A DNA stretch of 63,083 nucleotides, counting the filler. It is 3 parts of 3 records of this genome, joined end to end, with 100 filler letters (N's around TTAATTAATTAA, not from the genome) between each part and the next. Parts side by side here need not be neighbours in the genome. Positions count along the whole stretch, not along the records: positions 1 to 31,531 come from DRR723986_14739; 2 more parts are not named here. One strand, 5' to 3'. Below the pieces are notes generated by a model, which searched no databases, had not been told where the DNA came from, and saw nothing but the letters and a program-made list of their open reading frames with translations. Position numbers and translations under genes: made by a program. Of this stretch, positions 1 through 63,083 are shown piece by piece; position 1 is the stretch's first letter; every line of letters starts with the position of its first letter.

Positions 1-17
1 CCGCGTACCTGCGGAAC
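1..17 (-). CRISPR. Probable truncated first CRISPR repeat (array would lie left of the window)
   Basis: Reverse complement is GTTCCGCAGGTACGCGG: starts GTT, has a CCGC/GCGG stem, and is separated from RT-cas1 by an AT-rich leader-like stretch. Only one partial copy is visible. Confidence 0.4.
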
Positions 18-147
18 AGGCTCTCAGCCTCACCCCCTTGCAAGCAATTGTCAACATGATGATTGAAAACATGTGCTTCCACGAATACTCTCATCAAAGT
101 ATCTATTTTGCCTGATTTTTCATTATCCGTGGAAACATGGTCATTTT
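18..147. promoter_or_regulatory. Putative CRISPR leader / divergent cas promoter region
   Basis: AT-rich compared with the GC-rich cas genes; contains an imperfect inverted repeat CATGTgcTTCCACGaATA (70-87) / TATcCGTGGAAACATG (124-139). Confidence 0.45.
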
Positions 148-2169
148 ATGCCGGATTGCCTGAACACCAACCAGCATTTCGCTGATACCTTCCGCCAGGC
201 GACCAGGTTCGACACGCTGTGGTCCGCCTGGGAAAAAGTGCGAGCCAACAGGGGCGCGGCGGGCGGGGACCGCATCACCGTCGATGCGCTCGACCGGCGA
301 GCCCCGACTGCGCTCTCGCGGCTGTCGCATCAGCTCCGGCAGGGCAGCTATGCGCCCGGGCCTTCCCGACGCGTTCACATCCGCAAGCCGAGCGGAGGCT
401 TTCGGCCGCTGGACATCCCCTGCGTGATCGATCGCGTCGCCCAGGGCGCCGTCGCCATGACCCTGTCGCCCATCCTGGAAGAGCATTTCGAGGACGGCAG
501 CTTCGCCTATCGCCCGGGCCGCTCGGTCGCCCAGGCCGTTCACCGCGTCGCCAGACTGCGGCGGGACGGCTACACCTGGGTCGTCGACGCGGACATCGAA
601 CGCTGTTTCGAACGCATCCCGCACGATCGCCTGCTTCACAGGCTGGAAAGCGTCGTCGCCGACCCGGATCTGATCGACCTGGTGGCGCTCTGGCTGGAAA
701 GCCACGACCGGTCCGGGATAGGTATTCCCCAGGGCTCTCCCCTGTCTCCCCTCCTCGCCAATCTCCATCTCGACGCGATCGACGACGAGATCGAGAAGAA
801 GGGCGTTCGCATCGTCCGCTTCGCGGATGACTTCCTGCTCCTCTGCAAGACGCGGGAACTTGCCGACTCCGCCCTGGCCCATGCCGAGGAACTGCTCATG
901 GAGGCCGGCCTGGAATTGCACGAGGGCAAGACCCGCGTCGTTGCCTTCGACCAAGGGTTCAGGTTCCTGGGTCACGTCTTCGTGCGCTCCATGGTCTGGC
1001 AGGAAGTGTTCCGCGAGGAGGTGCCGGGCGAGGACCTGATCGCTGCGGCCGAAGCCGCCCTGCGCGTGGAAAGCGCAGCTGAAAAACGCGATACGCAGGC
1101 GGATGGCGACGGGGCGGAGAAAAAAGATGCCGAAGGATTCCCGCCCGGGCGCTGGGCTCCTCGGCAAAAGGTCCTTTACGCCGTCGAGCCGGGACGCACG
1201 GTCTATGCAACCGGCGGCACCTTCCAGGTGCGCGACGGCGAGGCGGTCTTGCTGACGCTGCCGCAGCGCTCGGTCGACCGGATCGAACTCGGCAACCACG
1301 TGACGGTCACGATGGAAGCGCTCGACCTGGCCGCCTCGACGGACACGGAGATTGTGCGGGTCAACGGCTACGGCGAGACGCTCGGCCGATGGCAGGGCCC
1401 GGAGGAACGCGACGCGCGACTGCAACTGGCGCAGGCGGCCGCCATTCTGGACCCGGAAAGACGCCGCGGACTGGCACAGCGCCTCGCCTTCGCGCGCGTC
1501 CACAACCAGCGCATCTTCCTGAAGCGGCAGAACCGGACGCGCAAGGACCCGGAAACGGATGCCGTCTGCCTTCAGCTGAACCGGATCGTTCGCAAGCTGG
1601 ACCTCGCCACCCTCCAGGTGGAAGAGGCGATGGGTCTGGAAGGCCATGCCGCCGCGCTCTACTGGCCCGCACTCGGACGCCTAACCGCCGAACCGTGGCT
1701 TTTCGCCAACCGCCGCAGACGACGCCTGAATGCCGACCCCATGAATATCGCCCTCGACGTGCTGTCGTCCCTCTTGATACGCGACATGCACGTCGCGATC
1801 AGCCGCACCGGACTTCATCCGGGCTTCGGTGTCCTGCACACGTCGCAGGATCAAGCGGATGCCCTCTGCTACGACCTGGTCGAGGAGTTCCGCGCGCCCG
1901 TGCCAGAGGCCTGCGTGATGGCGCTGGCTGCCCGAAAGGGACTTCGCGAAGAGCATTTCACGCGCAAGGGGGCCAATCGTTTCCGGATCGGCAGGAACGG
2001 CTACGCCACCCTGGTGCGCTCCTACGAAGCCTGGGTCAACCGCCCGATCACCGATCCCCAGACAGGCGAAAAAACCCTCTGGCGGGGCCTTATGCTCAGC
2101 CAGGCAAGGCACTTCGCCGACTGCTGCCTGACCGGCGAAGCCTATCAACCCTACAAGATGGACTACTGA
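148..2169 (+). CDS. cas1: CRISPR-associated reverse transcriptase-Cas1 fusion (RT-Cas1)
   Basis: N-terminal group II intron-like RT motifs (GAAGGD, RPLDIPCVIDRVAQ, SFAYRPGRS, DADIERCF, GIPQGSPLSPLLAN, RFADDF, FLG). C-terminal Cas1 motifs (MGLEGHAAALYW, GFGVLH, LCYDLVEEFR). ATG at 148 preferred over GTG at 73. Confidence 0.95.
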   Translation: MPDCLNTNQHFADTFRQATRFDTLWSAWEKVRANRGAAGGDRITVDALDRRAPTALSRLSHQLRQGSYAPGPSRRVHIRKPSGGFRPLDIPCVIDRVAQGAVAMTLSPILEEHFEDGSFAYRPGRSVAQAVHRVARLRRDGYTWVVDADIERCFERIPHDRLLHRLESVVADPDLIDLVALWLESHDRSGIGIPQGSPLSPLLANLHLDAIDDEIEKKGVRIVRFADDFLLLCKTRELADSALAHAEELLMEAGLELHEGKTRVVAFDQGFRFLGHVFVRSMVWQEVFREEVPGEDLIAAAEAALRVESAAEKRDTQADGDGAEKKDAEGFPPGRWAPRQKVLYAVEPGRTVYATGGTFQVRDGEAVLLTLPQRSVDRIELGNHVTVTMEALDLAASTDTEIVRVNGYGETLGRWQGPEERDARLQLAQAAAILDPERRRGLAQRLAFARVHNQRIFLKRQNRTRKDPETDAVCLQLNRIVRKLDLATLQVEEAMGLEGHAAALYWPALGRLTAEPWLFANRRRRRLNADPMNIALDVLSSLLIRDMHVAISRTGLHPGFGVLHTSQDQADALCYDLVEEFRAPVPEACVMALAARKGLREEHFTRKGANRFRIGRNGYATLVRSYEAWVNRPITDPQTGEKTLWRGLMLSQARHFADCCLTGEAYQPYKMDY

Positions 2170-2173
2170 CCCG

Positions 2174-2461
2174 ATGGCGAGGCCCGAGCACCTGTTCATC
2201 TTTGCCTATGACGTCGTCAAGGACGGCAACCGCACGCGGCTGTCCTCCATCCTGGAAGACCGGCTGGTCAGGGTACAGAAAAGCGTCTTCGAGGGGCGTC
2301 TGACCTCTGTCAGCGCCAAACGTCTTGCCGAACGCGCCTCGCTGCTGCTCGGGCCGGAGGACTCCCTCAGGGTCTACTGCGTGACGGAGGCGGGGCGCAG
2401 GTCGAGCTTCGCCTTCGGGCCTCAGCCCCTGCCGGAAGCCCAGGAATTCTGGCTGGTATGA
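2174..2461 (+). CDS. cas2: CRISPR-associated endonuclease Cas2
   Basis: 95 aa; FAYDV...R..L...RVQKSVFEG...EDSLRVY signature; 4 nt downstream of RT-cas1. Confidence 0.95.
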   Translation: MARPEHLFIFAYDVVKDGNRTRLSSILEDRLVRVQKSVFEGRLTSVSAKRLAERASLLLGPEDSLRVYCVTEAGRRSSFAFGPQPLPEAQEFWLV

Positions 2462-3360
2462 TCACGCTGTTCCAGCTCGGTCACGACCTCGCCAACCCGC
2501 CGCAGAAAGTGAATGCGGCAACCACCTGCGATCTGTGGATCGTCGACAAGGTGAGGTTCGTCTGCCAAAGGCCGGACGGGCTGAACGACTACCCGGAACT
2601 TCCCGTGCGGATCCGGGGCGGCTTCGGCCGCGCCCTTCATGCGCAACCCACTCTAAGACTGCCCTCCGGCCGCGCGATGCCGTCCGCGGCGGACGTGCTC
2701 TTCTCCCCCCTCTCGCATCGCACCAGAGGGGCTGAAATTCCCAAGCCGTTCGTTCTCCAGACCGAGGTTCACGGACCGCACTTGACGGTCGATCTTCTGC
2801 TCTTCGGCATGGCAGGCCGATGGCTGCAGCCGGCGGCGGACGCGCTCGTGGAAGCGCTCGAAGGCGGCATTGCCCTCTCGCCCGAAGCCAACGCGCTGCG
2901 CGTTCCCCTGCGGGTTCTGGATGGCGGGCTGAGCAGGATCGTCGGCGTGGATCGCGAGCTATCGGGGACGAGCGTGCACCTGCAGTTCCGAACCCCGGTC
3001 AGCGTCCGCAATCAGCAGAAGGCGCGCCTCGATCCGAGGGCCGTGTTGCGAAGCATTCCACGGCGCGCGGCGAGCCTTGCCCGCTGGCAGGGCTTCGAGA
3101 TCAGCGACAACTGGCAGGATCTGGCCGCGGACATCGAGGCCCTGGAGATCACGGACGACAGGCTCATCCCCTATCGCTGGCACCGCTTCACGCAGAACAT
3201 GGGAGGGACTCCCGTTCCGATGGAGGGCCTGATCGGCTCGTTCGGGGCGTCGGGCCAGATGGGAAGGCTGCTGCCATACCTTTCCATCTGCGCCTCGTGT
3301 CACACGGGCAGCCACGCCAGCCTTGGTCTCGGCCGCTATGACCTAGCCGTCTATCCGTGA
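2458..3360 (+). CDS. cas6: CRISPR pre-crRNA processing endoribonuclease Cas6 (RAMP)
   Basis: IRGGFGRAL N-terminal motif, KPFVL, FRTP and C-terminal Gly-rich loop HTGSHASLGLGRY; ATGA overlap with cas2. Confidence 0.88.
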   Translation: MITLFQLGHDLANPPQKVNAATTCDLWIVDKVRFVCQRPDGLNDYPELPVRIRGGFGRALHAQPTLRLPSGRAMPSAADVLFSPLSHRTRGAEIPKPFVLQTEVHGPHLTVDLLLFGMAGRWLQPAADALVEALEGGIALSPEANALRVPLRVLDGGLSRIVGVDRELSGTSVHLQFRTPVSVRNQQKARLDPRAVLRSIPRRAASLARWQGFEISDNWQDLAADIEALEITDDRLIPYRWHRFTQNMGGTPVPMEGLIGSFGASGQMGRLLPYLSICASCHTGSHASLGLGRYDLAVYP

Positions 3361-3421
3361 GGAGCAGCGGCGATGCGACAGCCTCACTTGTCAAGTTCCT
3401 GAAAAGGCGCCCCGACGGAAA

Positions 3422-3613
3422 TTACGTCCAGTCGCGCAGTTCCTCGTCGCTCATTGGCTCGAAGAGCTTCGCGGGCACTTCATACTGCCCCGCGCCGGCA
3501 CCCAGCCTGCGCGCTCTGGTCTTCTCCGCCGATGGCTTCACTGTTTCGGAATGCTTGCTGACTGAGCAATCGACGGAGGCGCCCGCGTTTTCGCCAAGTG
3601 GAGGATTACTCAT
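3422..3613 (-). CDS. Small protein resembling the C-terminal part of Phd/YefM- or DUF2281-type antitoxins
   Basis: 63 aa; GGAG RBS 7 nt before ATG; ends RRLGAGAGQYEVPAKLFEPMSDEELRDW, like the RRxGxxxG..P..F..PL.EEEL..W tail of type II antitoxins. Confidence 0.5.
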   Translation of the reverse strand: MSNPPLGENAGASVDCSVSKHSETVKPSAEKTRARRLGAGAGQYEVPAKLFEPMSDEELRDWT

Positions 3614-3962
3614 TCTTGCACTCCAGTTTCGCCAGCAACCGCCGGGTGCTCACAAGCCTATCTCAGATTGACCGACTGACCAAGTTTCGCTGACGATGCA
3701 ACATGTCCTTCCGGTCAGGATTTCGTAAACATTTCGAATAAAGAGCCTTAGATCACCACTCGCACGGATGCCTTTATCAAAATTCTTGTCAAAGTTTTGA
3801 TGACCGACGCTCAGGGCTCGTCCGTCTTAGTCAGCCAAGCGTTTTCAAATACAGCTGACCAAGCCAAGATCGGCCGCTTTTTCGAAGTTTTAGCACCCCT
3901 ACCCATGGTTTTAGTAGAAGACATGATGTACCTTAAGGATAGTCTGATTATGTGGTGACAAA

Positions 3963-5552
3963 ATGGTAGAAGCGACACATTCACGGCTATTCTCCCTGTT
4001 GTCTTCAACAGGTAATTGCTGGATCAAAGAGCCCCGCAATTGCTCATCTCGGTCGCATTATTCGGCACCAAGTAATATTTTAATTCTGAAATCAAGAATT
4101 TCTATTAGATCTCTTTTTAACTTCACTCTTCTTATCGCCACCCTTTCAATAACTTCGGCCTCGGCGCAGGAGGCCCCGGAAAGCTGGATTTCCATACCCT
4201 TGTCGATTGGCATTAGCGATCTACAGAGCTTTGCGGATCGCGCCCTTCCGAACCCTTTGCACCGCGACAGCTACGGTCGCACCTGTGTCGAACCGCAAGA
4301 GGCCTGCACAAAGGTGCCCGAGTTCCGGGGATTCAAGGTCACCTTCGGGATGCAGTGTGTCGAGGTGTCTCCACGTGTCAACTGCGACATCGAGGAGATG
4401 ATTGAGCGGGAGGGGCCGATACGAATTCGCGGCGACGGACCCGATATCGTTTTTCAGCAGGATATCTACGGCTCAGCCACAGTCACAGGACGCGGCGATA
4501 TCGGTAAGAACATTCGCCAGACCATCCGCGCAAAAGCGGAGATTACCGCGACAGCTCGCCCAAGTCTAAAAAGCGATTGGACGCCGGCTTCGCCAGTGAA
4601 GATCGAATACCGTTGGCTCGAGCGACCGGAATTCAAGCTGTTCAACCTTTTCCCAATCAGCCTTGGTAGCTTGCTCAGCCAAAAGATTGATGCCGAACTT
4701 CCCAATATCGAACAGAACATCCAGGCGCAGATCGCCAGGATCGACTTGCGCGCTGAAGCAGACAGACTCTGGCGCGCGCTGCAGGAGCCAATTGCGATCG
4801 AGTTGTCGGAAGATGCCTCAGCATACCTGCATATCGATCCGTTCTCGATTGGTCTCGACGGTCCGCACTTCGAAAATGGAGCCATATTGGGCCGTCTTGT
4901 GATTGGGCTGCGGGCAACCTTCGACAGCAGCGAATCCGCACAGCTCCCAACGCCGCTACCCAATCTCACCGAGGCTGCCCATAGAGGCGTTTCGTTGCGG
5001 CTTCCCGTCCGCCTCGAAGCCGGCCAGTTGAACGCACTCGTTGCCGACGCCCTGCCGGTAACAATTCCCGTCGAGGGGCCGCTTTCGGGAGACTTGACCA
5101 TCCGCTCAGCTACAGTATCGCTCAACGATAGTACCATGACGCTTGAACTTTCGGTTGAGGGCGCAGGGCTTCTGGCACCGCTGCCGTCCAGCCTTCATGT
5201 GACAACCCGACCCGTTCTGGACCCCATGGCGCAATCCCTCTCCTTCACGGAAATCGAGGTCTCAGCAGCTGAAGAGGCGGGCTTGACCGCTCCGTTGGCT
5301 GCTGCGGCGCTGGCGATGGCAAGGCCGTTTCTTGGAGATACCGTCGAGGTCGAACTCGAACGGCACCTCGCTGCGCTGGGGAAAGCGCTTGAAGCCGCGC
5401 TTAATCGCGATCTGGCGCCAGGCCTGCACATGACGGGAAGCGGAGCCCTGCGGCCGGCTCATATGAAAATCGAAGCAAACGCGATTTCGGTGGAGATGGC
5501 GCTGGATGGAAACGTAAGCGTCACAGGCTTCGATCCTTTGAGGCGACCTTGA
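3963..5552 (+). CDS. DUF4403-like exported protein (start uncertain)
   Basis: Signal-like segment (LLIATLSITSASAQE) at about aa 55-70, then SWISIPLSIGISDLQ and RAEADRLWRALQEPI motifs typical of DUF4403; the true start is probably downstream of 3963. Confidence 0.65.
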   Translation: MVEATHSRLFSLLSSTGNCWIKEPRNCSSRSHYSAPSNILILKSRISIRSLFNFTLLIATLSITSASAQEAPESWISIPLSIGISDLQSFADRALPNPLHRDSYGRTCVEPQEACTKVPEFRGFKVTFGMQCVEVSPRVNCDIEEMIEREGPIRIRGDGPDIVFQQDIYGSATVTGRGDIGKNIRQTIRAKAEITATARPSLKSDWTPASPVKIEYRWLERPEFKLFNLFPISLGSLLSQKIDAELPNIEQNIQAQIARIDLRAEADRLWRALQEPIAIELSEDASAYLHIDPFSIGLDGPHFENGAILGRLVIGLRATFDSSESAQLPTPLPNLTEAAHRGVSLRLPVRLEAGQLNALVADALPVTIPVEGPLSGDLTIRSATVSLNDSTMTLELSVEGAGLLAPLPSSLHVTTRPVLDPMAQSLSFTEIEVSAAEEAGLTAPLAAAALAMARPFLGDTVEVELERHLAALGKALEAALNRDLAPGLHMTGSGALRPAHMKIEANAISVEMALDGNVSVTGFDPLRRP

Positions 5553-6820
5553 TGACGGGAAAAGACGACCATGGGCGCCCCAGCGCAAGTCACTCGGGCG
5601 ATGATGACCAGACTGTCGGGCAGGCCGCCAAAGCCAGACGAACGGGACAGGAGCGCATCCAGGACTTAGCAGAAGAGCACGTCAAAGCCCTTGCCAGGGA
5701 GGCGATCGACGCTTGGCAGGAGGAGCGCGACAAAGCTGCTTTCAAACTATTTGACCGGACGTCCTGGCGGAATGTCAACAGGCTTTCGCTGGGTAGTGCC
5801 GTCGTCGCTGCAGCGCTGGTGTGCTTTGCTGCAGGCTGGGAGTTGTGGAACCCAGAGACCAACGACCTGCTCGGCCTGTTTAACAAGGCGATGGGCACGG
5901 ATGATCACATCTCGTCCGCACTGAAGGCTGAGTATAAAAAAACCGACTTCAAGCGTGCGGTCGGTGATGTGGTGACGCGAAGCTACCTGGAAGACACCTT
6001 AGGCAATGCCATCGAAGGGAAGGTCAAAAAGTTACACGAATCACGCGATTTCGAGACTTTAATCGACGCCTCGCTTGCCAGAATTGCAGAAAAAGAACCT
6101 GGCAGTGGAAACCCGCTTCGTTCGTTTGTCACACATGCAATGCGCGCAGCACCTGTTCTCGCCTTTCATGGTGAAGCGGTTTTCGGCAACCCTCGGACGA
6201 TCACCTTTACAAACAGCGCTTGCAAGAGCCTCCTGGCCTCGGCGGCCCTACCTCCGGCCGAGGGCGAACTCCCACCTCCCCAAGTCGTGGATTCTGAGGG
6301 CGCTGAGGATTTCTGCACCAGCAACGTACCTATTGACTTCTCGGATTCTCTCGACATCCCTTTTCACGCGCGCTTTTTTGACTTGGCCCGTGTCGGTCCG
6401 TCACACGAGGTCTGGATCGTAATCTTCATTGACCGCAAACTGCGCGCGGACGGGAAGCAACTCGCGGATCAGTTGACAGCTGAGAACCACCCAGCCGGCC
6501 TCTGCGTCCTGTACAACGCTGCTGCCAACCATATTGGCGCGCGTTACCGCATCGAGGACGGCCTAATACTTTCGAAGATGGTGACAGCGGGCAACGGCTT
6601 CTGGACGACAAACCTCACGGAAATCCTAAAGGAAAAGGGGATCGGCACCGAAACCGGCAACACCATTGATCCCTCAGAACTGCTACACAGCATCACCATT
6701 AAGTACGTTCGAGATGGCGAGTCCGGCCCATGCGACAATATCGCTCCCACAGCGGATCAGATCATCTCAGTGCGAGCCGTGGTGCTCGTAAACAAGCGAG
6801 CGGACGAGCAACTTAGATGA
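5552..6820 (+). CDS. Hypothetical membrane-anchored protein
   Basis: About 422 aa; one hydrophobic helix (LSLGSAVVAAALVCFAAGW); TGATG overlap with the upstream gene; no family recognised. Confidence 0.75.
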   Translation: MTGKDDHGRPSASHSGDDDQTVGQAAKARRTGQERIQDLAEEHVKALAREAIDAWQEERDKAAFKLFDRTSWRNVNRLSLGSAVVAAALVCFAAGWELWNPETNDLLGLFNKAMGTDDHISSALKAEYKKTDFKRAVGDVVTRSYLEDTLGNAIEGKVKKLHESRDFETLIDASLARIAEKEPGSGNPLRSFVTHAMRAAPVLAFHGEAVFGNPRTITFTNSACKSLLASAALPPAEGELPPPQVVDSEGAEDFCTSNVPIDFSDSLDIPFHARFFDLARVGPSHEVWIVIFIDRKLRADGKQLADQLTAENHPAGLCVLYNAAANHIGARYRIEDGLILSKMVTAGNGFWTTNLTEILKEKGIGTETGNTIDPSELLHSITIKYVRDGESGPCDNIAPTADQIISVRAVVLVNKRADEQLR

Positions 6821-7458
6821 GCCTGCCGACGTCCACACCATTCGATCAGGCATGGAGTTCGGTCGGGACGTTTCTGCTAGCCACGGCGATCGCTATCTAT
6901 TTCTTCCTCACCACCGGCGCCTTCGCGCTCTTTGAAGTTCCCGGAACCCCAATGGATGACGGCAGTGTCGTCGCCTACGCCTATTTCGGCGCACTACTGC
7001 TGAGCGCAGGCTTGATGTTTCTCGCGTTCATCGCTATTGCCGCTGCAGGGGCCGATGACGGACCCGTTTCACCGCCTTGGCCGCGCTTCCGCCCTATCGA
7101 GGACAAAGATTGCCGCCGAGTGCCAGGGCTCGCGATCGTTTCTCTGTTGACCGTGACGCTTGTTCCACTTGCAATTACGATCCTTTGCCTCGTCCGTTAT
7201 GTAAACAAGAGTCGCATCGCAACCTGGCTTCCTCCCGAGGCGCTGGACCACGGCTTCTTCTCCAGCAGGTCTGCGGCGCTTGCTCACTCATGCGAACAAA
7301 GTGCTTGCTTCAGAATGTACCCGGCAAGCGGCGCTCCTGAATGGTTCCTAGCGAGTGACTTAGCGCTGCTTATCATAATTGCTGCCGCTGTTACGGCCTG
7401 GGCATGGCTCGCAGTAATCGTGAGGCGAAGGAAAACCAACAGGAGTGGCCGCACATAG
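6817..7458 (+). CDS. Hypothetical integral membrane protein (about 4 TM)
   Basis: 213 aa with four hydrophobic segments and a basic C-tail; ATGA overlap with the upstream gene. Confidence 0.75.
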   Translation: MSLPTSTPFDQAWSSVGTFLLATAIAIYFFLTTGAFALFEVPGTPMDDGSVVAYAYFGALLLSAGLMFLAFIAIAAAGADDGPVSPPWPRFRPIEDKDCRRVPGLAIVSLLTVTLVPLAITILCLVRYVNKSRIATWLPPEALDHGFFSSRSAALAHSCEQSACFRMYPASGAPEWFLASDLALLIIIAAAVTAWAWLAVIVRRRKTNRSGRT

Positions 7459-7721
7459 GCCAGTCCTTCATGTTGTTACACGCACACCAGTTGAAGCGCC
7501 CAAAAAGGAAATGGTTCCAGCCCTGCGCAATTTGCTTTCGAGCTTGTGAACGGTCAAACAGGGCGCACGAAGGAACAATCTAGGTCGATTCTGGTTAAGA
7601 TCAGCGCAAAAAGGTTTCCACCATAGCTAGACCACAACAAAACGCATACAAAACTTACCTACAATTCGAGACGCAGAGATATTACAAGTCCTTGTTATAA
7701 AACACTTTTATTTGATTTCCG

Positions 7722-7749
7722 GAGAGTTCAAATCTCTCCGGCAGCACCA
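7722..7749 (+). mobile_element. Isolated tRNA 3'-end copy (att-like site of a tRNA-integrated genomic island; likely tRNA-Thr)
   Basis: GAGAG-TTCAAAT-CTCTC-CGGCAGC-A-CCA is a perfect T-arm, acceptor 3' strand, discriminator and CCA, with no tRNA 5' half upstream. IHF-like motifs at 7685-7697 and 7777-7789. Confidence 0.75.
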
Positions 7750-8000
7750 TTTCACATTTCTTCCCGCAAAAGACGCTAACACCTTGAATAGTAAGGTAAT
7801 TGCTGGCGTTCTACAGTCCTCGTTTCGGGTGTATTCCAAGCGCTTATTAAAAGCCTATCTGAGGACTGCATTCTGCAACTCGACGGCGCATGAGCCCTCA
7901 AGGTTCTTCCTTGCGTTCCATTGCCGGAATAACGCCGCAATGCTTGGTTTTATGGGGTAAAGCCCTAGCTAAGCTGCTTGCGAGCTTGTGAGGAAATGCG

Positions 8001-9305
8001 ATGAATGAGAGCCAGACGAAATTGACTGCTGCGGAAGCAAAAGGCCTTCGCACTGCCAAGGAGCTTGAAGCTCATCTTGCTTGGCTGGAAACCTTCACAC
8101 CTGCGGCGCTCGGCGTTCTGGCAATCGCTTCCGGTATCTACACCTACCTGGGTGTGTCCTCTCTGCTGGAGGATACGGGTGCGATGAGTTTCTTCGCGGC
8201 GGTGGCCTATTCCGTCGCCGTGTCAGTCGGGATTTTCGTATTCTGGAGCTACATGCTTCGGCTCATGCCCGCGATGCGCAGTGCGGCGGGTTTCATCGGG
8301 CTTTCGGTTTCAATGCTTGTGGGGTCGGCTGCAATCATTGCCATGTCGAGCTGGCTCAACGCGGCCGCGCTTGCAGGCTCAGCTGCTGTCGAACAGCACC
8401 TGGATACGACAGTCCGCGACTACCAGGCGGCTTTGGAGCAGGCACATGAGATCGCCCTTTCGGGCCAGGCTCTCGGTCGTGAGGTTCAACGTGCAAAGGA
8501 AGCATTCGAAGCACTCGCCCAACAGGAACGCTCCGGCGAGCTCTCAGGCACAGCGGGTGAAGGCGCAGTCTTTCGAGTTCTGACGCAAAAAACAGAAGAG
8601 CTCCAGAACCTTGAGGAGCAGATTTCAGAACAAAAGCCACTGATCGACTCCGCCTTTGCCCGGGGCAACGAAATCCTTGGGCGCATGCGAGCCCTGACGG
8701 TTGCCCCCGGCCCGGTTGAACAAAGGTCGGTCGCGTTTTCGGAGGAAAGCGTGCGTCTTGCCGGCGTTATTGCAAACCTGAACCAGTACTCCGTTGCACC
8801 GCTCGTCGCTCGAGCTGCCGAAGATCTGCCCGCATCTGTTGTTCTTCCCGAACTTGATGGCCGAAACAGCAGCGTTCGGGACGCTCAATCAAGCACCATC
8901 GCATCGGTGTTGAACGCCCTCGACCAACGCAGCCAGACCCTGCGGCGCGCAGCCGATGACGTGCTGGCGTTGGAGCCACCACAGGAGACGGCCTATAATC
9001 CGATCTCAAGCGCCGACGCTGTGATCAGGTACGCAGGCAACTTTGTCCCCTCATGGGCTGGTGCTATCGCGATCGACCTCCTGCCCGCCGTTCTGGTCTT
9101 TGTGGTCGCAATCACCCAGGCATCGATCCGTAGCGGCCGGGATGGGCTGAGCATCGAGGAAACCCTGACGCTCGCAGACCTCAAGGCAGCAATCAATGCG
9201 ATGAAGGATGTCGAGGCTTCGATGGGGGCGGCAGACAAGGAAGTCTTGCGCCGTGTCGCAAATGCGGAAACTTCCGAACCCGCAAACCTGAATGCCGCGG
9301 AGTAG
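8001..9305 (+). CDS. Hypothetical membrane protein with periplasmic coiled-coil region
   Basis: 434 aa; GAGG RBS; three N-terminal TM helices, an Ala/Glu/Gln-rich helical region and one late TM helix. Confidence 0.85.
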   Translation: MNESQTKLTAAEAKGLRTAKELEAHLAWLETFTPAALGVLAIASGIYTYLGVSSLLEDTGAMSFFAAVAYSVAVSVGIFVFWSYMLRLMPAMRSAAGFIGLSVSMLVGSAAIIAMSSWLNAAALAGSAAVEQHLDTTVRDYQAALEQAHEIALSGQALGREVQRAKEAFEALAQQERSGELSGTAGEGAVFRVLTQKTEELQNLEEQISEQKPLIDSAFARGNEILGRMRALTVAPGPVEQRSVAFSEESVRLAGVIANLNQYSVAPLVARAAEDLPASVVLPELDGRNSSVRDAQSSTIASVLNALDQRSQTLRRAADDVLALEPPQETAYNPISSADAVIRYAGNFVPSWAGAIAIDLLPAVLVFVVAITQASIRSGRDGLSIEETLTLADLKAAINAMKDVEASMGAADKEVLRRVANAETSEPANLNAAE

Positions 9306-9311
9306 CACGAC

Positions 9312-10103
9312 GTGTTTTCCGAGCGCCTTGATACGTCGCGGATAACCATTCAGCGCAGCCTGAAGTGGGTTTTGGTCGCCCAGGCGATCTTGGCAGCCTT
9401 GTTGGTGCTCTCGCATCTGCAGGCTCAATTGACCTCGGGGGGTGGCGGCAACGATGCACTGCCGTCCGGACCCACGACACCCGGCGATCAAGTGAGACAC
9501 TACGATCCATCTCGAAGCTTTCCCGACTTCATGCGGACACCCGCCCCGTCGACTGTCAAAATTCCAGGTGACATGCCTCCCAGGCTTCAGTTTGAAGTGA
9601 TCGACAGGGGCGAATTGGGGGAAGCGATTTTCCTGAAGGGCCGGATCTCATCTGGAGACGCCGAACGCTTCACGAGCTTCCTGGCCAGCCTGGAAGAAGC
9701 CCCCAAAGTGGTTTCGCTCCATAGCCCCGGTGGCAATGTGAGTGAGGCATTTGAAATTGGTCGTAGCTTGCGCGCAGCTGAGCTGGATACCACCATGCTG
9801 CCTGGTTTGGTGTGCCTTTCGTCGTGTCCTTACATCTTTGCAGCCGGTGTCAATCGTTCAGCCTCCAAGGATGCTGCCGTAGGCATGCATCAGCACTACT
9901 ATGACACCCCCGGCTACATGCCTGTTTTCCTGGCGGTGGAAGAGATTCAGTACGGCCAGGGGGAAACGATGGAATACCTGATCGAGATGGGTATCGATCC
10001 AGGCCTGATGGTCCATTCTCTCAATACGCCCCCCAAGGAAATCTACATCCTGGTTGAAGATGAGCTTCTCGGCACCCGGCTCGCGACGGAAATCCTGGAC
10101 TGA
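9312..10103 (+). CDS. Membrane-anchored periplasmic protein, COG3904-like (ClpP/crotonase-type fold)
   Basis: N-terminal TM helix; GRISSGDAERF, VSLHSPGGNV, CLSSCPYIFAAG and VGMHQ motifs. Confidence 0.7.
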   Translation: MFSERLDTSRITIQRSLKWVLVAQAILAALLVLSHLQAQLTSGGGGNDALPSGPTTPGDQVRHYDPSRSFPDFMRTPAPSTVKIPGDMPPRLQFEVIDRGELGEAIFLKGRISSGDAERFTSFLASLEEAPKVVSLHSPGGNVSEAFEIGRSLRAAELDTTMLPGLVCLSSCPYIFAAGVNRSASKDAAVGMHQHYYDTPGYMPVFLAVEEIQYGQGETMEYLIEMGIDPGLMVHSLNTPPKEIYILVEDELLGTRLATEILD

Positions 10104-10273
10104 GTGCCGTTCAGCAGAGGCCCATTGACGACCTGGCGGCAAGGCTGCCGCCGTGAACGTCGGGTTTCGGGACAAGATTTCGAGCTGGCAGATGACCGAA
10201 CAGGAGACACCAAGTTGCCAATAATCCAATAGGTGTTAAATGACTGCTTTGGGCCCGATAACACGAGTAAGAT

Positions 10274-10639
10274 ATGAGTCCTGAACTAGAGAGCTTTTTG
10301 CAAGAGCGTGTATTGCCCAGTTATAGGGACATCGTGCTTCGGTTCTGCCGGCAGATGTCCGAGATTGCACCCGAAGCGACACAGCGCATGCGGGGTGGCA
10401 CGGAAAAGTATTATTCAGTGCCAGTTTACAGAGTTAACCGAGACATTGTGGCTATCAGCCCAACCAAAACTGGCGTTACATTTTCATTTACTCATGGCGC
10501 GAGTTTTGACGACCCACATGGATTTCTAAAAGGTTCGGGCAAGAAGTCACGAAATATTCGGGTTTCGAAGATTAGCAACTACCCAACCAACGAGATGGCA
10601 GGCTTCATTAAACAAGCTGTGGCGCTGGACACCGAATAG
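10274..10639 (+). CDS. DUF1801 (YdhG-like) protein
   Basis: 121 aa; VTFSFTHGASFDDPHGFLKGSGKKSRNIRV motif. Confidence 0.8.
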   Translation: MSPELESFLQERVLPSYRDIVLRFCRQMSEIAPEATQRMRGGTEKYYSVPVYRVNRDIVAISPTKTGVTFSFTHGASFDDPHGFLKGSGKKSRNIRVSKISNYPTNEMAGFIKQAVALDTE

Positions 10640-10940
10640 TCTCGGTCCAGATGAACGGCAACTTTCTCCACAAAGTTGCCTATCGTATCGCGTTACGCCA
10701 TCGTCAGACGGCTCCCACAAAACCACCAGCGCATCATTCAAGGGAACCGGCTGCTCACCGACGATGGGGCAAGGCATACTCGGCTGGCAAGGGACAACCT
10801 TCAAACTCAGCCCGGCTTGCCGGAGACATGATACGGACCAAGAAGAGAGTTCCCTGGAACTGTATCAGCGGCGCCGTCCGCGCCGTATGCTTCCAGCCGG
10901 CGTCGAACAGCAGCCACCGGGTCTGAGTCCGCTCCAAAAG

Positions 10941-11831
10941 CTACAGATGCAACTGGCCAGTTGCAGTGAGCACAGCGGAACCGGTCAGTTCAACAGCGTC
11001 AGGGCGCACGAGAATCCGAATATGGCTTTCCCTACCCATACCAACCCCTTGCACGACCGTGAACGTTTCTTGTCCCCCAGCACCGCTGCGGTTGGCCAAT
11101 AACCACCCCAGTGGGCCTGCGGCACTTCCTGTTGCCGGGTCTTCCCGAATGCCTACGGTTGGATTGAAGAAGCGAGCATAGGCTTCCCCACTCTGTTCAC
11201 CAGATGTCGTGAATACATAACATCCTTGCGCGCCGGCACGCTCCAACAGCGGAAGAAGCATGGAGGCGTTAGGCTCCGCGCGGTCAACTTCGTCGCGGGA
11301 AACGAGCCTGACGAGCATATGCGCCGCACCAGTGGAGACCACGACCGCCTCCTGCGGCCCAAGGGCCGGTTCAGTCTTGTCGAGCCCCAGTGCTTCGGCA
11401 AGCGCCTGCAAGTCCCCGACGTCGCCGATATGGCGCGGCATGGCCTGAGACAGGGAGACAGTGGCCCGTCCATTTTCCCGTCCGATCGAAACTGGAAGAA
11501 GCTCGTCCCCCAGTTGCTGAACAAACGAGGTGCGTTCACGTAATTGACCCGTTTCTGCCAACCACCACCAGACACCTAGTGCGTTATGGCCGACACCAAA
11601 CACTTCGTCTCCGGTCGGCGTAAACGATCTAATTCGAAAGTCCGCAGAAGCCTCTGTAGGCGCCAGGACAAATGATGTCTCCGATAAATTGAATTCGACG
11701 GCGATCGCGCGCATCGTGTGCTCGTCCAGGTCATCCGCGTCAGCAACCACAGCAAGAGGATTGCCGCGCAGCGGCCTCTCGGCAAACACATCGACGATCG
11801 CATACTGTTGAATTTTATTCGTGGCATTCAT
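10941..11831 (-). CDS. PhzF-family isomerase/epimerase
   Basis: VDVFAERPLRGNPLAVV, NLSETSFV, RSFTP and EDPATGSA motifs; ATG at 11831 with GAGG RBS. Confidence 0.9.
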   Translation of the reverse strand: MNATNKIQQYAIVDVFAERPLRGNPLAVVADADDLDEHTMRAIAVEFNLSETSFVLAPTEASADFRIRSFTPTGDEVFGVGHNALGVWWWLAETGQLRERTSFVQQLGDELLPVSIGRENGRATVSLSQAMPRHIGDVGDLQALAEALGLDKTEPALGPQEAVVVSTGAAHMLVRLVSRDEVDRAEPNASMLLPLLERAGAQGCYVFTTSGEQSGEAYARFFNPTVGIREDPATGSAAGPLGWLLANRSGAGGQETFTVVQGVGMGRESHIRILVRPDAVELTGSAVLTATGQLHL

Positions 11832-11926
11832 TTGAATTCCTCTCTGTTTTGCGAAGAATTCTCTTGAAAACGCGAGATTTAGCAATCTAATCTATTTCAA
11901 CAGTATTGAGAAAAATTGCAAATCAG

Positions 11927-12808
11927 ATGCCACAACCGTCTCTAAAGTCACTACAGGCAGCGGAAGCTGTAGGCCGTTTAGGCAGTTTGTCGCGGGCGGC
12001 ATCCAGCCTCAATGTGACGCCAAGTGCTGTGAGCCACCAACTACGTCTGCTTGAGGCGCAACTCGAGGTAACGCTGTTCGACAGGACGGATACGGGCTTG
12101 GTTCCCACCGCGAAGGGCAGGTTGCTTTTGCCAAAACTCACGGAAGGGTTTCAGGTGATTTCGGACGGGTTAGCCGAGATAAGCGCCAAGCCTCGACCCT
12201 TGCTTACCGTTTCGTGCGGTCTCGCTTTTGCCGCGCGTTTTCTTGTGCCGCGTCTGGTGAACTGGAACGCGGAACATCCGGATACAGAGATTAGGCTCGT
12301 CACCACCAGCCGACTGGTCGATTTCGATCGGGAAGACATCGACATAGCCATCAGATTTGGCAAAGGCGAGTGGCCGGATGTGAAAACCGAAAAGATCGTG
12401 GACCAGTCGATCGAACTCGTCTGCACTCCTGGCCTCAGCAAAGCATTCCTTGCCCAGGCAACAGCCTCCAAAGTTCCGCTCATAGTTGATGAGCAAAGCC
12501 TTGTTTCCTGGCCCCAGTGGTCTTCCAGTGTAGGCAATAAGTATCTCGACCCTTCCCGACACCCGGTAGTCCGTGTGCCTGACGCGTCACTATCGTACGA
12601 GGCTGCTGTTTCCGGTCAGGGCCTGTGGCTGGCATGGCCTGTTCTGACGCGTGACGCCGTTGCCTCCGGCATTCTGGTGAGACCAGACATTCCGAGATGG
12701 AATGCAAATCTCGGATACTGGGCTGTATCGACAGCATCAAGATGGCGCCGGCCTCAAGTCAGGAAATTTCGCGCCTGGCTGCACCAAACCTGCGCAGCGG
12801 CTGTTTGA
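11927..12808 (+). CDS. LysR-family regulator (GcvA-like), divergent from the PhzF-like gene
   Basis: HTH (AASSLNVTPSAVSHQLRLLE), LVPRL and DIDIAIRFGKGEW motifs. Confidence 0.92.
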   Translation: MPQPSLKSLQAAEAVGRLGSLSRAASSLNVTPSAVSHQLRLLEAQLEVTLFDRTDTGLVPTAKGRLLLPKLTEGFQVISDGLAEISAKPRPLLTVSCGLAFAARFLVPRLVNWNAEHPDTEIRLVTTSRLVDFDREDIDIAIRFGKGEWPDVKTEKIVDQSIELVCTPGLSKAFLAQATASKVPLIVDEQSLVSWPQWSSSVGNKYLDPSRHPVVRVPDASLSYEAAVSGQGLWLAWPVLTRDAVASGILVRPDIPRWNANLGYWAVSTASRWRRPQVRKFRAWLHQTCAAAV

Positions 12809-13076
12809 GGCAGTGGGCATTTCGACAAACCAAAAATGTCGCTGATCTCAATGTGCAGTGCCGATCAGCGAGTATGCGCAGGACACGTTTCCGGATGCGG
12901 TCATGACGAGCTTCATGTTGCAAGACCACTGTTCGGAGAGGCAATGACAAGAATGCCCACTTTGCTGACTGATACTTGCATCGGAAAAAAACGCGTCGGC
13001 TGACAGAGACTGCCCAGGGACTGCCGTCAGTTTTCCGATGGGCACTTTGAGCTGGCCTTGGCCAGAGCAACAAGCG

Positions 13077-13976
13077 TTATTTGCCGGAAGAGACGTCAGC
13101 GACGCAGCGATGGAGATGTCGTGCCAGCGTCGTTGCTGCTGCTTTCGCCTCCTTGTGTTTCGGTCGAACCAGATGGAATGCGCCATCTGGAAACAGCGGC
13201 TGGTCCCGGAACACCGCGAGCTGCCCCTGCCGCAGCAGGTCGCTTGAATTCGAAACCCATCCCAGCATCACTCCCATCCCGGCAATCGCAGCCTGGGTGG
13301 CCTGAACGTAGTTGCTGAACGTCCGGTTGCCCTGCCCGCTTCCGGAAAGGCCCATAGCATCGAAATATTGATCCCACCTCGGCCAGCATTCATCCTCAGC
13401 CTCGACATGCAATAAAGTCGCCTTTGCCAAATCGCCGTTGCCGAGACGCATCATGGCCTCCGGACTGCAGACTGGTATCAGGCGCTCGCGAAACAGAAGT
13501 TCGCTTTCGCCATCGGCCCAGTCTCCGGAACCATAGCGAATGAGTAGATCCGTTTCGGAGGCAAACTGCGGGATCAAGTTCGTGGTCGAGACTTTCACGG
13601 TAATTTCGGGATGCTGGTTATAGAACTCGGCAAGGCGCGGCATCAGCCAATAGGTGCCGGTACAGATGGTACAGGCCACTGTCACTATATTTTGGTCGGC
13701 ACTTTCCATCGCCTTTATATGATCCACCGCCCGCCCGATCTGATCGAATCCGCTCGAAACTCCCTGAAGCAAGATCCGTCCGGCTTCCGTTAACGCGGCC
13801 GGCCGGACCCGGCGATCCAGTAACTTTGTTCCCACGTGGTCCTCAAGATTTCGCAGCGCCTGGCTGACCGCGGGTTGAGTCACGTTCAACTCCGCAGCGG
13901 CGTTCTGCACTCCTCCGGTGCGCAGAACCGCTTCGAAGGTCGTGAGAAGGCGAAGTGGCGGAATCTCGCGCCTCAT
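13077..13976 (-). CDS. LysR-family regulator (GcvA-like)
   Basis: IPPLRLLTTFEAV, AAAELNVTQPAVSQ, WLMPRL and AAIAGMGV motifs. Confidence 0.92.
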   Translation of the reverse strand: MRREIPPLRLLTTFEAVLRTGGVQNAAAELNVTQPAVSQALRNLEDHVGTKLLDRRVRPAALTEAGRILLQGVSSGFDQIGRAVDHIKAMESADQNIVTVACTICTGTYWLMPRLAEFYNQHPEITVKVSTTNLIPQFASETDLLIRYGSGDWADGESELLFRERLIPVCSPEAMMRLGNGDLAKATLLHVEAEDECWPRWDQYFDAMGLSGSGQGNRTFSNYVQATQAAIAGMGVMLGWVSNSSDLLRQGQLAVFRDQPLFPDGAFHLVRPKHKEAKAAATTLARHLHRCVADVSSGK

Positions 13977-14100
13977 TTATATAACCTCATGATTATGTTG
14001 GATTAGAATTTACCATCTTCCAACTATATGATTTTTTTGAAAAAATTAAAACACCGAACGAAAAATTGCTTTCGAAATTCAAACTTGCATAAGCAGAGAG

Positions 14101-14877
14101 ATGTTGATGAGAGAGACGGCTTCCCCTACCCCGACCAAGGAGTTAAACGCGGCCGAGGTTCAGTCCTTGCGGATAGATCTGGCAGCAGCTTTTCGACTGA
14201 CCGTTCTGTTTGACTGGCATGAGTCCGTAGGCAACCATTTCAGTGCCGCGGTTTCCGCGAATGGGACACGCTTTCTGATGAACCCGCGCTCGCATCACTT
14301 TGGCGAAATGCGAGCGAGCGACCTTATTCTTCTCGATGCGGACGACGCGAGCGTGATGTCCCGACCGAATGCGCCCGATCCCTCCGGCTGGACTATCCAT
14401 GGAGCAGTACATCGTCAGTGTCCTGACGCCCGTGTCCTGCTGCATTGCCACCCGCCCTATGCCACTGCACTTGCAAGCTTGTATAATCCGGAAATGCTGC
14501 CCATTGACCAGAACACAGCGCGTTTCTTCGGAAAACTCGGTGTCGACCTGGATTTCGACGGGATCGCCAACGATGCGGAAGAAGGTGAGCGACTGGCTGC
14601 CGCATTCCAAAACAAATGCGCTCTCCTCATGGGAAATCACGGCGTCAGCGTTACCGGCCCTACAGTCGCGGAAGCATTCGAAGAACTGTATTTCCTGGAA
14701 CGCGCGGCCAAGACCCTCGTTCTCGCTTATTCAACGGGACGTTCGCTCAGTATCATGTCCGACGACCTGGCGCAGAAGACAGCCGACGGCTGGCTCCCCT
14801 ACAGAGACCAGGCATTTGCGCATTTCGACTATCTGAAACGGCAACTCGACAAAACGGACCCCTCCTATCGCGACTGA
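14101..14877 (+). CDS. Class II aldolase/adducin-family protein
   Basis: RIDLAAAFR, NHFS, IHGAVH, LLHCHPPYATAL and LLMGNHGV metal-binding motifs. Confidence 0.9.
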   Translation: MLMRETASPTPTKELNAAEVQSLRIDLAAAFRLTVLFDWHESVGNHFSAAVSANGTRFLMNPRSHHFGEMRASDLILLDADDASVMSRPNAPDPSGWTIHGAVHRQCPDARVLLHCHPPYATALASLYNPEMLPIDQNTARFFGKLGVDLDFDGIANDAEEGERLAAAFQNKCALLMGNHGVSVTGPTVAEAFEELYFLERAAKTLVLAYSTGRSLSIMSDDLAQKTADGWLPYRDQAFAHFDYLKRQLDKTDPSYRD

Positions 14878-14911
14878 CAGGAAACAATCATCTTGAAAAT
14901 GGAGAGCTTGA

Positions 14912-15631
14912 ATGACGAAACCTGAGGTTCTGTTCTTCGACGTTCTGGGAACGGTCGTCGACTGGCGCGGCAGCATTGCGGCAGAGGTATCCTCGTTTCT
15001 GGAGCGCAACAACGCAGCGCACATTGACGCCGGCGCGTTGGCAGATGCCTGGGTCGGACGATACGACAGTTCTGTCGAGCCTATTCGCCGGGGTCTGCAA
15101 TCCTTTGCCACATTGGACGTGGTCAACTTGTCTAATCTGGAGGGCACCCTGGAGGAATTCGGGTTGAAAATCTCCGAGTTGCCTCACGCAGAATTTGTCC
15201 ACCTTAACCAGGCATGGCATCGCCTCAAGCCGTGGCCCGATTCCGTGAAAGGGATATCCAACATGAAGGAACGATTTGTCGTTGCTCCGCTGTCGGATGG
15301 GCACACGAGACTTCTGGTGAACATGGCAAAACACGGCGGCTTGCCATGGGATACAATCATTGGTGCGGATATCTCCAGAACTTACAAACCAATGCCGCAA
15401 GCCTATCTGCGCGCCTGCGAGGTGTTGGGGGTAAAACCTCACAATGCGATGCTGATTGCCGCGCACGACTACGATCTACGTGCCGCACGTGAATGCGGGT
15501 TCAAAACAGCCCTCGTCGTCCGCGAGAACGCACAAGATCCGTCTAAAACTGGCGAGCCCGGGTCGAGCGAAGATTGGGATTTCAGCGCAGGCAATCTGAT
15601 CGAGCTCGCAAATATCCTGTTGGCGGCCTAA
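14912..15631 (+). CDS. Haloacid dehalogenase type II (HAD superfamily)
   Basis: FDVLGTVVDWR, AWHRLKPWPD, YKP and AAHDYDL motifs. Confidence 0.88.
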   Translation: MTKPEVLFFDVLGTVVDWRGSIAAEVSSFLERNNAAHIDAGALADAWVGRYDSSVEPIRRGLQSFATLDVVNLSNLEGTLEEFGLKISELPHAEFVHLNQAWHRLKPWPDSVKGISNMKERFVVAPLSDGHTRLLVNMAKHGGLPWDTIIGADISRTYKPMPQAYLRACEVLGVKPHNAMLIAAHDYDLRAARECGFKTALVVRENAQDPSKTGEPGSSEDWDFSAGNLIELANILLAA

Positions 15632-15862
15632 ATCCCCCATGACGACGATCCGAAACGGCCGGCAAGTCGGGCATCTGCTGTCTTGTCGGTCCGTCTCTGG
15701 TTTGCGGTGCTCTTTAGGGCCGCTGGATTGGTGTTCCTGAGCCTCGCACCGGGCTCAAACAGCGAAGGCTGACACTGCAATCACGGGCCGAATTCGGTGT
15801 AAGAGAAGCGCTGCCAGTTCAAAACAATGTTGCTCGGGTATAGCGGGCCAAACCCCATCAGC

Positions 15863-63009: not shown

Positions 63010-63083
63010 GCGGGTATGGTGTAGTGGTAGCGCGCCGGCTTCCCAAGCCTGAAGTGCGGGTTCGATTCCCGCTACCCGCTCCA
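63010..63083 (+). tRNA. tRNA-Gly (CCC)
   Basis: GCGGGTA/TACCCGC acceptor stem, anticodon loop TTCCCAA, T-arm GCGGG-TTCGATT-CCCGC, encoded CCA; one mismatch in the anticodon stem. Confidence 0.95.

Follow-up and report, generated by a model that had tools for sequence, protein, structure and literature searches.

To our knowledge, modules in which a reverse transcriptase (RT) is fused to Cas1 are the only known natural route by which RNA enters a CRISPR array, and transcriptional recorders have been built on them. Here we describe such a module, an RT-cas1 fusion gene followed by cas2 and a stand-alone cas6, at the left end of a 63,083-nucleotide (nt) stretch of DNA joined end to end from three records of one genome (hereafter, the window). 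Positions 1-3360 are best explained as the adaptation part of a type III CRISPR-Cas locus that belongs to an alphaproteobacterial RT-Cas1 lineage, most likely the published clade 7, and that was acquired horizontally by the chromosome of a marine, probably Kordiimonadales, bacterium. In this reading, which we hold with reasonable confidence, the array and a probable type III effector lie past the left edge of the window.

Characterised RT-Cas1 systems and their likeness to the locus

The characterised RT-Cas1 clades include clade 8, represented by Marinomonas mediterranea MMB-1, clade 12, represented by Fusicatenibacter saccharivorans, and clade 6, represented by Vibrio vulnificus (PMC6821258). 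The clade 8 proteins of M. mediterranea MMB-1 and Thiomicrospira (PDB 6dd5 and 7kft/7kfu) resemble the window protein in that a group-II-intron-like RT is fused to a Cas1 that works with Cas2. In these proteins, however, Cas6 is the N-terminal domain of the same polypeptide, whereas the Cas6 of the window is a separate protein of 300 amino acids (aa), and their hosts are gammaproteobacteria rather than an alphaproteobacterium. The fused Cas6 domain of clade 8 is reported to be required for acquiring spacers from RNA and to affect RT activity (PMC8102632).

The type III-D system of V. vulnificus YJ016 (clade 6; González-Delgado et al. 2019, PMC6821258) likewise has an RT-Cas1 that lacks a fused Cas6, its effector genes and its adaptation operon are transcribed in opposite directions, as in the lineage of the window, and RT-dependent spacer uptake from RNA has been demonstrated for this system. 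It differs from the window locus in its clade, in having two Cas2 proteins and a YADD motif, in carrying cas6 among the effector genes rather than after cas2, and in having arrays that flank the adaptation operon on both sides (PMC6821258). The III-D-linked RT-Cas1-Cas2 of F. saccharivorans is the precedent for a transcriptional recorder (PMC6821258); it belongs to the Firmicutes clade 12 and is likened to the window module by description, not by sequence.

RT-CRISPR clade 7 is an (Alpha, Delta)proteobacterial group in which 12 of the 13 records are RT-Cas1 fusions (Toro et al. 2017, PMC5541045). Its members are mostly linked to type III-D systems, and it was the source of the type VI-A/RT1 adaptation modules (Toro et al., PMC6753606). 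This clade shares with the window an RT-Cas1 fusion without an N-terminal Cas6 domain and an alphaproteobacterial host, and the gene order RT-cas1, cas2, cas6 with an array just upstream is also the same, as on plasmid AZO_p2 of Azospirillum lipoferum 4B, where cmr genes are annotated together with cas1-cas2-cas6. The A. lipoferum RT-Cas1 is 47% identical to the window protein over 98% of its length and falls in the same 24-row clade of the tree described below; its effector genes are of type III-B (cmr), whereas the nearest typed relatives of the window are of type III-D. A literature search joining RT-Cas1 with Azospirillum returned no papers.

Architecture of the RT-cas1, cas2 and cas6 operon

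The three open reading frames (ORFs) of the operon (Table 1) are all full length relative to their homologues and match Pfam and PADLOC profile hidden Markov models, which bears out the intact RT-Cas1/Cas2/Cas6 module of the initial annotation. The tight coupling that it described is also seen, since only 4 nt separate the RT-cas1 stop codon from the cas2 start, and the cas2 stop and cas6 start overlap by 4 nt (ATGA).

Table 1. Position of the features of the adaptation module within the window
Feature	Position (nt)	Strand	Evidence or remark
3' 29 nt (+ strand) of the 37-nt CRISPR repeat, leader-proximal	1-29	- (crRNA strand)	Alignment to relatives' repeats
Leader and divergent intergenic region	30-147	.	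Alignment of 34 leaders
Leader-proximal motif TCACCCCCTTGCAA	30-43	.	Matches family consensus TTACCCCCTTGCAA
TTGTCAA	48-54	.	
Box 1, TTCCACG	77-83	.	
Inverted box copy, CGTGGAA	128-134	.	14 nt before RT-cas1 ATG
RT-Cas1 fusion gene, 673 aa	148-2169	+	Pfam, NCBIfam and PADLOC profiles; alignment
RT domain of RT-Cas1 (residues 78-277)	379-978	+	Pfam RVT_1, E 1.2e-38
FADD motif of RT-Cas1 (residues 225-228)	820-831	+	Alignment
Linker of RT-Cas1 (residues 285-345)	about 1000-1180	+	
Cas1 domain of RT-Cas1 (residues 343-627)	1174-2028	+	Pfam Cas_Cas1, E 4.3e-57
Cas1 catalytic codons E498; H564; D576; E579	1639-1641; 1837-1839; 1873-1875; 1882-1884	+	
cas2, 95 aa	2174-2461	+	Pfam CRISPR_Cas2 2e-14; TIGR01573 1.9e-09; PADLOC Cas2 1.1e-15
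Stand-alone cas6, 300 aa	2458-3360	+	Pfam PF10040 1.7e-10; PADLOC Cas6 9.6e-29
Module end, without recognisable gene	3361-3962	.	Pfam

The RT domain of the fusion protein is of the group-II-intron type and lacks the intron maturase part. The match to the NCBIfam model group_II_RT_mat (TIGR04416; 2.4e-83, 280 bits, below the 300-bit cut-off) is made by the RT part alone and covers model positions 2-274 of 353, and the PADLOC RT model is matched at 1.3e-89. The cas1 equivalog of NCBIfam (TIGR00287) is matched at 4.9e-52, passing its cut-off, and the top subtype-specific PADLOC model, Cas1_IIIb (1.2e-84), spans both domains (residues 14-598). Only 17 residues precede the conserved N-terminal RT block, and no Cas6 domain is fused there. 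The linker, initially described as acidic, is mildly so, with 14 D+E against 9 K+R among its 61 residues.

The residues expected to be catalytic, D147/D149 and FADD in the RT and E498, H564, D576 and E579 in Cas1, are kept in the window protein and invariant in an alignment of 22 RT-Cas1 sequences, A226, D227 and D228 of the FADD motif among them, so that the E/H/D-E motifs reported for Cas1 are confirmed. The presence of FADD rather than YADD had been singled out as well. FADD is indeed present, but it is the commonest state of the RT-Cas1 family and no departure from it: among the 120 best matches, the first residue of the [Y/F]ADD motif is F in 82 and Y in 36, with the pattern unmatched in 2. 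FADD is also found in the Thiomicrospira Cas6-RT-Cas1, which carried out primer extension (Wang et al., PMC8102632). The closest solved structure to the window protein is the Cas6-RT-Cas1 7kft (E 2.7e-53), with which RFADDF is identical in the HMMER alignment. Homologues span 97-100% of the protein, and the best identity among 2080 database matches is 57%; with no database protein above that value, near identity to a characterised system does not remove the novelty of the module.

The last gene of the operon encodes a putative Cas6 endoribonuclease, an assignment to which its profile matches, its predicted fold and a C-terminal glycine-rich loop all point, with RNA cleavage as the predicted activity. 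The loop reads GSHASLGLGRY, and G284, G290 and G292 are invariant in an alignment of 16 homologues. The AlphaFold model has a predicted local distance difference test score of 90.9, and a PDB fold search with this model ranked Cas6 endoribonucleases at the top (best 6fjw, E 5.4e-10), with the clade 8 Cas6-RT-Cas1 structures 6dd5 and 7kft at ranks 24 and 43. A PDB sequence search with the single Cas6 protein gave no match, and a PDB profile search gave only E values of 0.03-0.18, 6dd5 and 7kft standing at 0.17-0.18. Judging from these comparisons, the window Cas6 is far in sequence from the fused Cas6 domains of clade 8. Predictions of a complex between the RT part (residues 1-335) and Cas6, made without an alignment, scored 0.00, 0.81 and 0.00 in three runs.

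The position of cas6 was counted in the 38 related loci that have at least 1300 nt of sequence after cas2, with the window Cas6 as query. A Cas6 match lies at most 1.5 kilobases (kb) downstream of cas2 on the same strand in 20 of them; in the other 18, Cas6 is located elsewhere in the locus (5 loci) or there is no match to the window Cas6 (13 loci). The operon had been presented as a variant with a separate Cas6. Cas6 is indeed separate, but the arrangement already occurs in public genomes, A. lipoferum AZO_p2 among them, and fits the published clade 7. Past cas6, the small ORFs 3357-3671 (+) and 3422-3613 (-) match no Pfam family.

Placement in an alphaproteobacterial lineage

In an RT-Cas1 tree in which group II intron RTs served as the outgroup, the window protein falls within a 24-row clade supported by a Shimodaira-Hasegawa-like approximate likelihood-ratio test (SH-aLRT) value of 99, in which every taxonomically labelled row is alphaproteobacterial. 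Set apart from this clade are the group II intron RTs and a branch whose RT-Cas1 proteins are mostly gammaproteobacterial, with others among them. The alphaproteobacterial type first proposed for the module is upheld. Within the 24-row clade, the window belongs to a 13-row subclade (SH-aLRT 99) with L083 (loci related to the window carry L numbers), itself inside a 19-row clade (SH-aLRT 100) with L086. L083 is the closest metagenomic relative, with RT-Cas1, Cas2 and Cas6 proteins that are 55%, 65% and 39% identical to those of the window, and the named RT-Cas1 matches come from Rhizobium, Roseomonas, Rhodoplanes, Azospirillum and other alphaproteobacteria. A related-locus search of genome contigs with the single RT-Cas1 protein found no relative, and the alignment-based follow-up search returned, among the matches listed, mostly group II intron RTs.

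The window RT-Cas1 nests in an alphaproteobacterial RT-Cas1 lineage that is probably the clade 7 of Toro et al. The operon is a novel member of an already published lineage, and its architecture is annotated in RefSeq genomes.

A partial repeat and the probable orientation of the array

Positions 1-29 of the window align with the 3' portion of relatives' complete repeats, which are 37 nt long in most loci and which end, for instance in L124 and L017, in ...CAGCC or ...TAGCC, followed by the same leader motif. The window would then start inside the array, its left edge cutting off the first 8 nt of this repeat together with all further repeats and spacers. No second repeat copy at 3 or fewer mismatches was found in the window (0 of 100 in shuffles), and neither Tandem Repeats Finder nor a repeat search nor a k-mer scan detected an array there. 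A 12-nt motif from the head of the repeat had one match, at 54560, which is at chance level and was discarded.

The end of the array was located in the 35 related loci whose N-terminus is covered and whose upstream flank measures 480 nt or more. In 34 of these, all but L092, the distance from the array to the RT-cas1 match downstream is at most 500 nt, and in alphaproteobacterial relatives the array of 37-nt repeats ends 150-300 nt upstream of that match. Read as minus-strand RNA, the relatives' repeats form a 3' hairpin, UCCGC...GCGGA, that leaves a tail of 7-8 nt (AUUGAGAC/AUAGAAAC), and the repeat fragment of the window retains the CCGC...GCGG stem. Degenerate repeats occur at the far end of the array in relatives. 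Since hairpin and tail are on the minus strand and the degenerate repeats stand at the far end, the array would be read leftwards, divergently from RT-cas1. The layout of the locus is then an array running leftwards, the leader, and RT-cas1, cas2 and cas6 running rightwards, and the repeat in the window would be the leader-proximal one, the entry point for new spacers.

The break of the repeat at the first base of the window looks like a window or assembly break rather than a deletion. At the opposite end, a tRNA-Gly(CCC) gene (63010-63083) ends at the last base of the window, so that one end lies inside a CRISPR repeat and the other at a tRNA gene; both ends resemble contig or assembly breaks at repeated sequence. 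Two public DNA sequencing runs contain window sequence, with shares of 0.08 and 0.06, and no RNA sequencing run with window sequence is listed. X1 contributed three pieces of 166-283 nt and X2 one of 203 nt, each identical to the window; the remaining X2 pieces are matches of 19-24 nt only.

A conserved leader with TTCCA boxes

The leaders of 33 related loci were aligned with that of the window, anchored at the repeat end. L005 was left out, as its repeat boundary could not be set, and leader starts were adjusted by hand in 8 loci. The leader-proximal motif, with the consensus TTACCCCCTTGCAA, is common to the 34 leaders, as is TTG..AAG at about +19 to +27. A TTCCA begins +46 to +48 from the first repeat in 25 of these leaders, compared with a mean of 0.86 and a maximum of 4 in 500 shuffles. 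A second TTCCA is present as a direct copy at +146 to +150 in 16 loci, and as an inverted copy at +96 to +99 in three cases with a shorter intergenic region, namely the window, L084 and L086. Within a locus, the sequences of the boxes co-vary: L002, for example, has a direct pair of 14 nt, and L086 an inverted pair of 12 nt. The box pairs of L086, L001 and L002 are significant (0 of 100 shuffles each); the 7-nt pair of the window, taken alone, is not (29 of 100 shuffles). The GC content of positions 1-147 is 43.5%.

Other signals were sought in the same region. An RNA hairpin between the two boxes appears in the minimum free energy fold, yet with a z score of -0.34 it is no better than in shuffles and was rejected. 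A promoter scan of positions 1-4000 found no sigma-70-like promoter, and the lone Rfam match in that interval, to a viral element (E 0.4), is at chance level. A literature search for RT-Cas1 leaders in type III systems returned no paper title on this leader.

A regulator site and an integrase-contact motif are the obvious candidates for the function of the TTCCA boxes. We offer the following as a speculative proposal that is rather unlikely to hold in full. The TTCCA box 46-48 nt from the first repeat, with a second copy about 101-103 nt (direct) or about 51 nt (inverted) further on, may be a leader signal of the clade, undescribed as far as one literature search shows, which would either guide the RT-Cas1-Cas2 integrase by docking or bending or serve as an operator coupling array transcription to RT-cas1 expression; the coupled stand-alone Cas6 might at the same time be a trans-acting subunit of the RT-integrase, taking the role that the fused Cas6 domain has in clade 8.

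The state of the leader also bears on whether the module is a decaying remnant, that is, non-functional genes left behind after the array and effector were lost. The single visible repeat fragment and the gene-free interval that follows cas6 are what such decay might leave. On the other hand, the three ORFs are full length, every catalytic residue and both gene junctions are kept, all the leader motifs are present at the right spacing, and the repeat stops exactly where the window does, resembling an assembly break more than a deletion. We therefore regard decay as a very improbable explanation.

Search for effector genes in the window and their occurrence in related loci

That no interference genes follow the operon, as first annotated, holds for the window: PADLOC at 1e-5 detected no Cas family, Cas13 included, among 46 further ORFs, and tblastn with the Cmr and III-D proteins of relatives found nothing. 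The accompanying suggestion, an adaptation-only module or one with its effector beyond the array, needs to be revised in that the array, judging from relatives, lies upstream of RT-cas1, not downstream. Because the window starts inside the array, any effector genes would be off its left edge, and an adaptation-only module cannot be concluded from the window.

Relatives with a typed effector carry type III-B or III-D genes on the far side of the array. Among the 20 relatives with at least 7 kb of upstream sequence, 6 are III-B, 4 are III-D and 10 are untyped, the untyped ones having been screened by tblastn with two query sets only. The III-B relatives are L002, L003, L004, L098 and L105 (tblastn) and L081 (RefSeq annotation); the III-D relatives are L083, L092 and L093 (tblastn) and, by PADLOC, L083 and L086. 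Rhodobium orientis (L004) shows the order cmr1-cas10-cmr3-cmr4-cmr5-cmr6-csx16, array, RT-cas1-cas2-cas6, and in L083 and L086 a Cas10d, a Cas5_IIId and two Cas7_IIId are encoded on the minus strand past the array. L083 and L086 are the only typed members of the subclades to which the window belongs; because both are III-D, a III-D partner is favoured as a first guess, and III-B would be possible.

Two further loci, of untyped effector, have genes for large RAMP-type proteins next to the array and no recognisable cmr or III-D set. In L082 (Tistrella mobilis pTM1, 2481-9284), proteins annotated as RAMP superfamily (about 545-754 aa) adjoin it. In L084 (551-7861), proteins of 561, 734 and 908 aa do so, of which the 734-aa one alone has a weak RAMPs match.

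By analogy with characterised homologues, RT-Cas1 together with Cas2 would capture RNA or DNA fragments and integrate them at the leader-repeat junction, the RT, through D147/D149 and the FADD motif (225-228), making the DNA copy. The array would be transcribed from the leader on the minus strand, and Cas6 would cut each repeat at the foot of its 3' hairpin, so that a type III complex receives an 8-nt handle. Under this scheme, uptake of RNA-derived spacers is plausible, and use of the module as an RNA recorder, raised in the initial annotation, is plausible by homology only.

Several points weigh against the reading of the locus as the adaptation end of a type III system. The window holds only 29 nt of one repeat, and no spacer, second repeat or effector gene is seen in it. 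The 29-nt repeat has 0 exact matches in metagenome contigs and 0 in viral contigs, and no sequencing-run piece reaches the left end of the window, so the array and effector remain out of sight. The link to clade 7 rests on taxonomy, architecture and our own tree, built without the published reference sequences, and the host assignment given below comes from one marker gene. No activity of any clade 7 type III module is described in the papers compared. Half of the long-flank relatives (10 of 20) stayed untyped with the two tblastn query sets, effector genes are missing from about half of RT-cas loci (Silas et al., PMC5513706), and 7 of the 13 clade 7 records have a partial or unknown effector (Toro, Table 1, PMC5541045).

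The last of these points lend themselves to another explanation, in which leader, array, RT-cas1, cas2 and cas6 form a stand-alone adaptation module with no effector in cis; its partner in trans would be a type III system encoded at another place in the genome, or it would have no partner. The effector-less RT-cas loci, which often retain an array, led to the proposal of an autonomous, horizontally mobile module (Silas et al., PMC5513706), the clade 7 records with partial or unknown effectors agree with it, no effector match was found by tblastn in L005, L106 and L124 despite at least 7 kb of upstream sequence, and the window module is itself a GC island (66% versus 54%). However, an effector operon stands just past the array in 10 of the 20 long-flank relatives and in both typed members of the window's subclade; divergent effectors of the untyped loci may have escaped, because only two query sets were used; and the presence of cas6 in the operon implies that CRISPR RNA (crRNA) is produced for some effector. 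Taken together, a stand-alone module is unlikely, and we favour the adaptation end of a type III locus.

The effector off the left edge could also be a Cas13a, in which case the module would serve a type VI-A system like the 'VI-A/RT1' ones of alphaproteobacteria. The RT-Cas1 and Cas2 of alphaproteobacterial Cas13a loci are reported to have been recruited from relatives within clade 7 (Toro et al., PMC6753606), and the RT-Cas1 of Rhodovulum kholense has RT activity in vitro (PMC11662929). The described modules, however, consist of RT-Cas1 and Cas2, whereas cas6 is translationally coupled to cas2 in the window. The repeat family has the shape of Cas6 substrates, a hairpin with an 8-nt tail, the typed relatives carry type III genes only, and neither Cas13 nor another Cas family was found among the 46 window ORFs, the upstream side being beyond the window. 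A type VI-A partner is thus highly improbable, and a type III partner, III-D in the first place, is preferred.

Genomic setting of the module

The module (148-3360) has a GC content of 66.0%, compared with 53.7% for the rest of the window and 55.8% over positions 3361-16000, and GC drops directly after cas6. This contrast fits horizontal acquisition. The rest of the window encodes chromosomal housekeeping functions, among them nucleoside transport and salvage, LysR regulators, acyl-CoA synthetases, a hybrid histidine kinase and a TonB-type receptor. A thymidine phosphorylase (40530-41870) has 72-74% identity to named Kordiimonas/Kordiimonadaceae proteins, with values of up to 92% for unnamed ones, which suggests that the host is a marine, probably Kordiimonadales, bacterium.

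The window as a whole is a GC mosaic ranging from 44 to 67%. The next gene after the CRISPR module encodes a 529-aa DUF4403 protein (3963-5552, +; E 1e-51), followed, up to 10103 on the same strand, by four ORFs (423, 213, 434 and 263 aa) that match nothing in Pfam or PADLOC; a PADLOC search of ten ORFs, eight of them within 3963-12805, gave no match. A second high-GC stretch (64-66%) at 17-21 kb coincides with a 2002-aa non-ribosomal peptide synthetase (16749-22754, -) that has two AMP-binding and two PP-binding stretches, a Condensation and a Thioesterase domain. The tRNA-Trp predicted by ARAGORN at 19479-19571 lies inside this synthetase ORF and is probably false. A 695-aa protein (23860-25947, +) combines cyclic-nucleotide-binding, NTE-type P-loop-like and patatin phospholipase domains. 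From 30000 to 54000, GC is lower over a long stretch (44-53%), and GC skew is positive at about 35-44 kb. This stretch includes a nucleoside salvage and transport cluster made up of a PnrA-like binding protein, an ABC ATPase, two permeases, the thymidine phosphorylase and a uracil phosphoribosyltransferase.

A MADS defence system was considered from PADLOC matches and dismissed. The mad3 (1.5e-33) and mad8 (2.2e-14) matches are cross-matches of the ABC-transporter ATPase at 36431-37987 (+), from which five other weak PADLOC matches also arise. A mad2 match (4.4e-19) and two other weak matches, whose source ORFs were not located, are not read as MADS.

Significance for the RT-Cas1 family

In the papers compared, work on spacer acquisition in cells covers clades 8, 12 and 6 together with type VI-linked modules (PMC6821258, PMC11662929), and the alphaproteobacterial lineage is represented there only by the in vitro RT activity of a related type VI-A protein (PMC11662929). 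The locus described here is genomically ordinary, since its architecture is already in RefSeq and its lineage is published. As a full-length member of that lineage, catalytically complete as judged by its residues and accompanied by its leader, it is nevertheless a fair candidate for testing, and it could reveal whether the alphaproteobacterial lineage records RNA and whether its separate Cas6 is needed.

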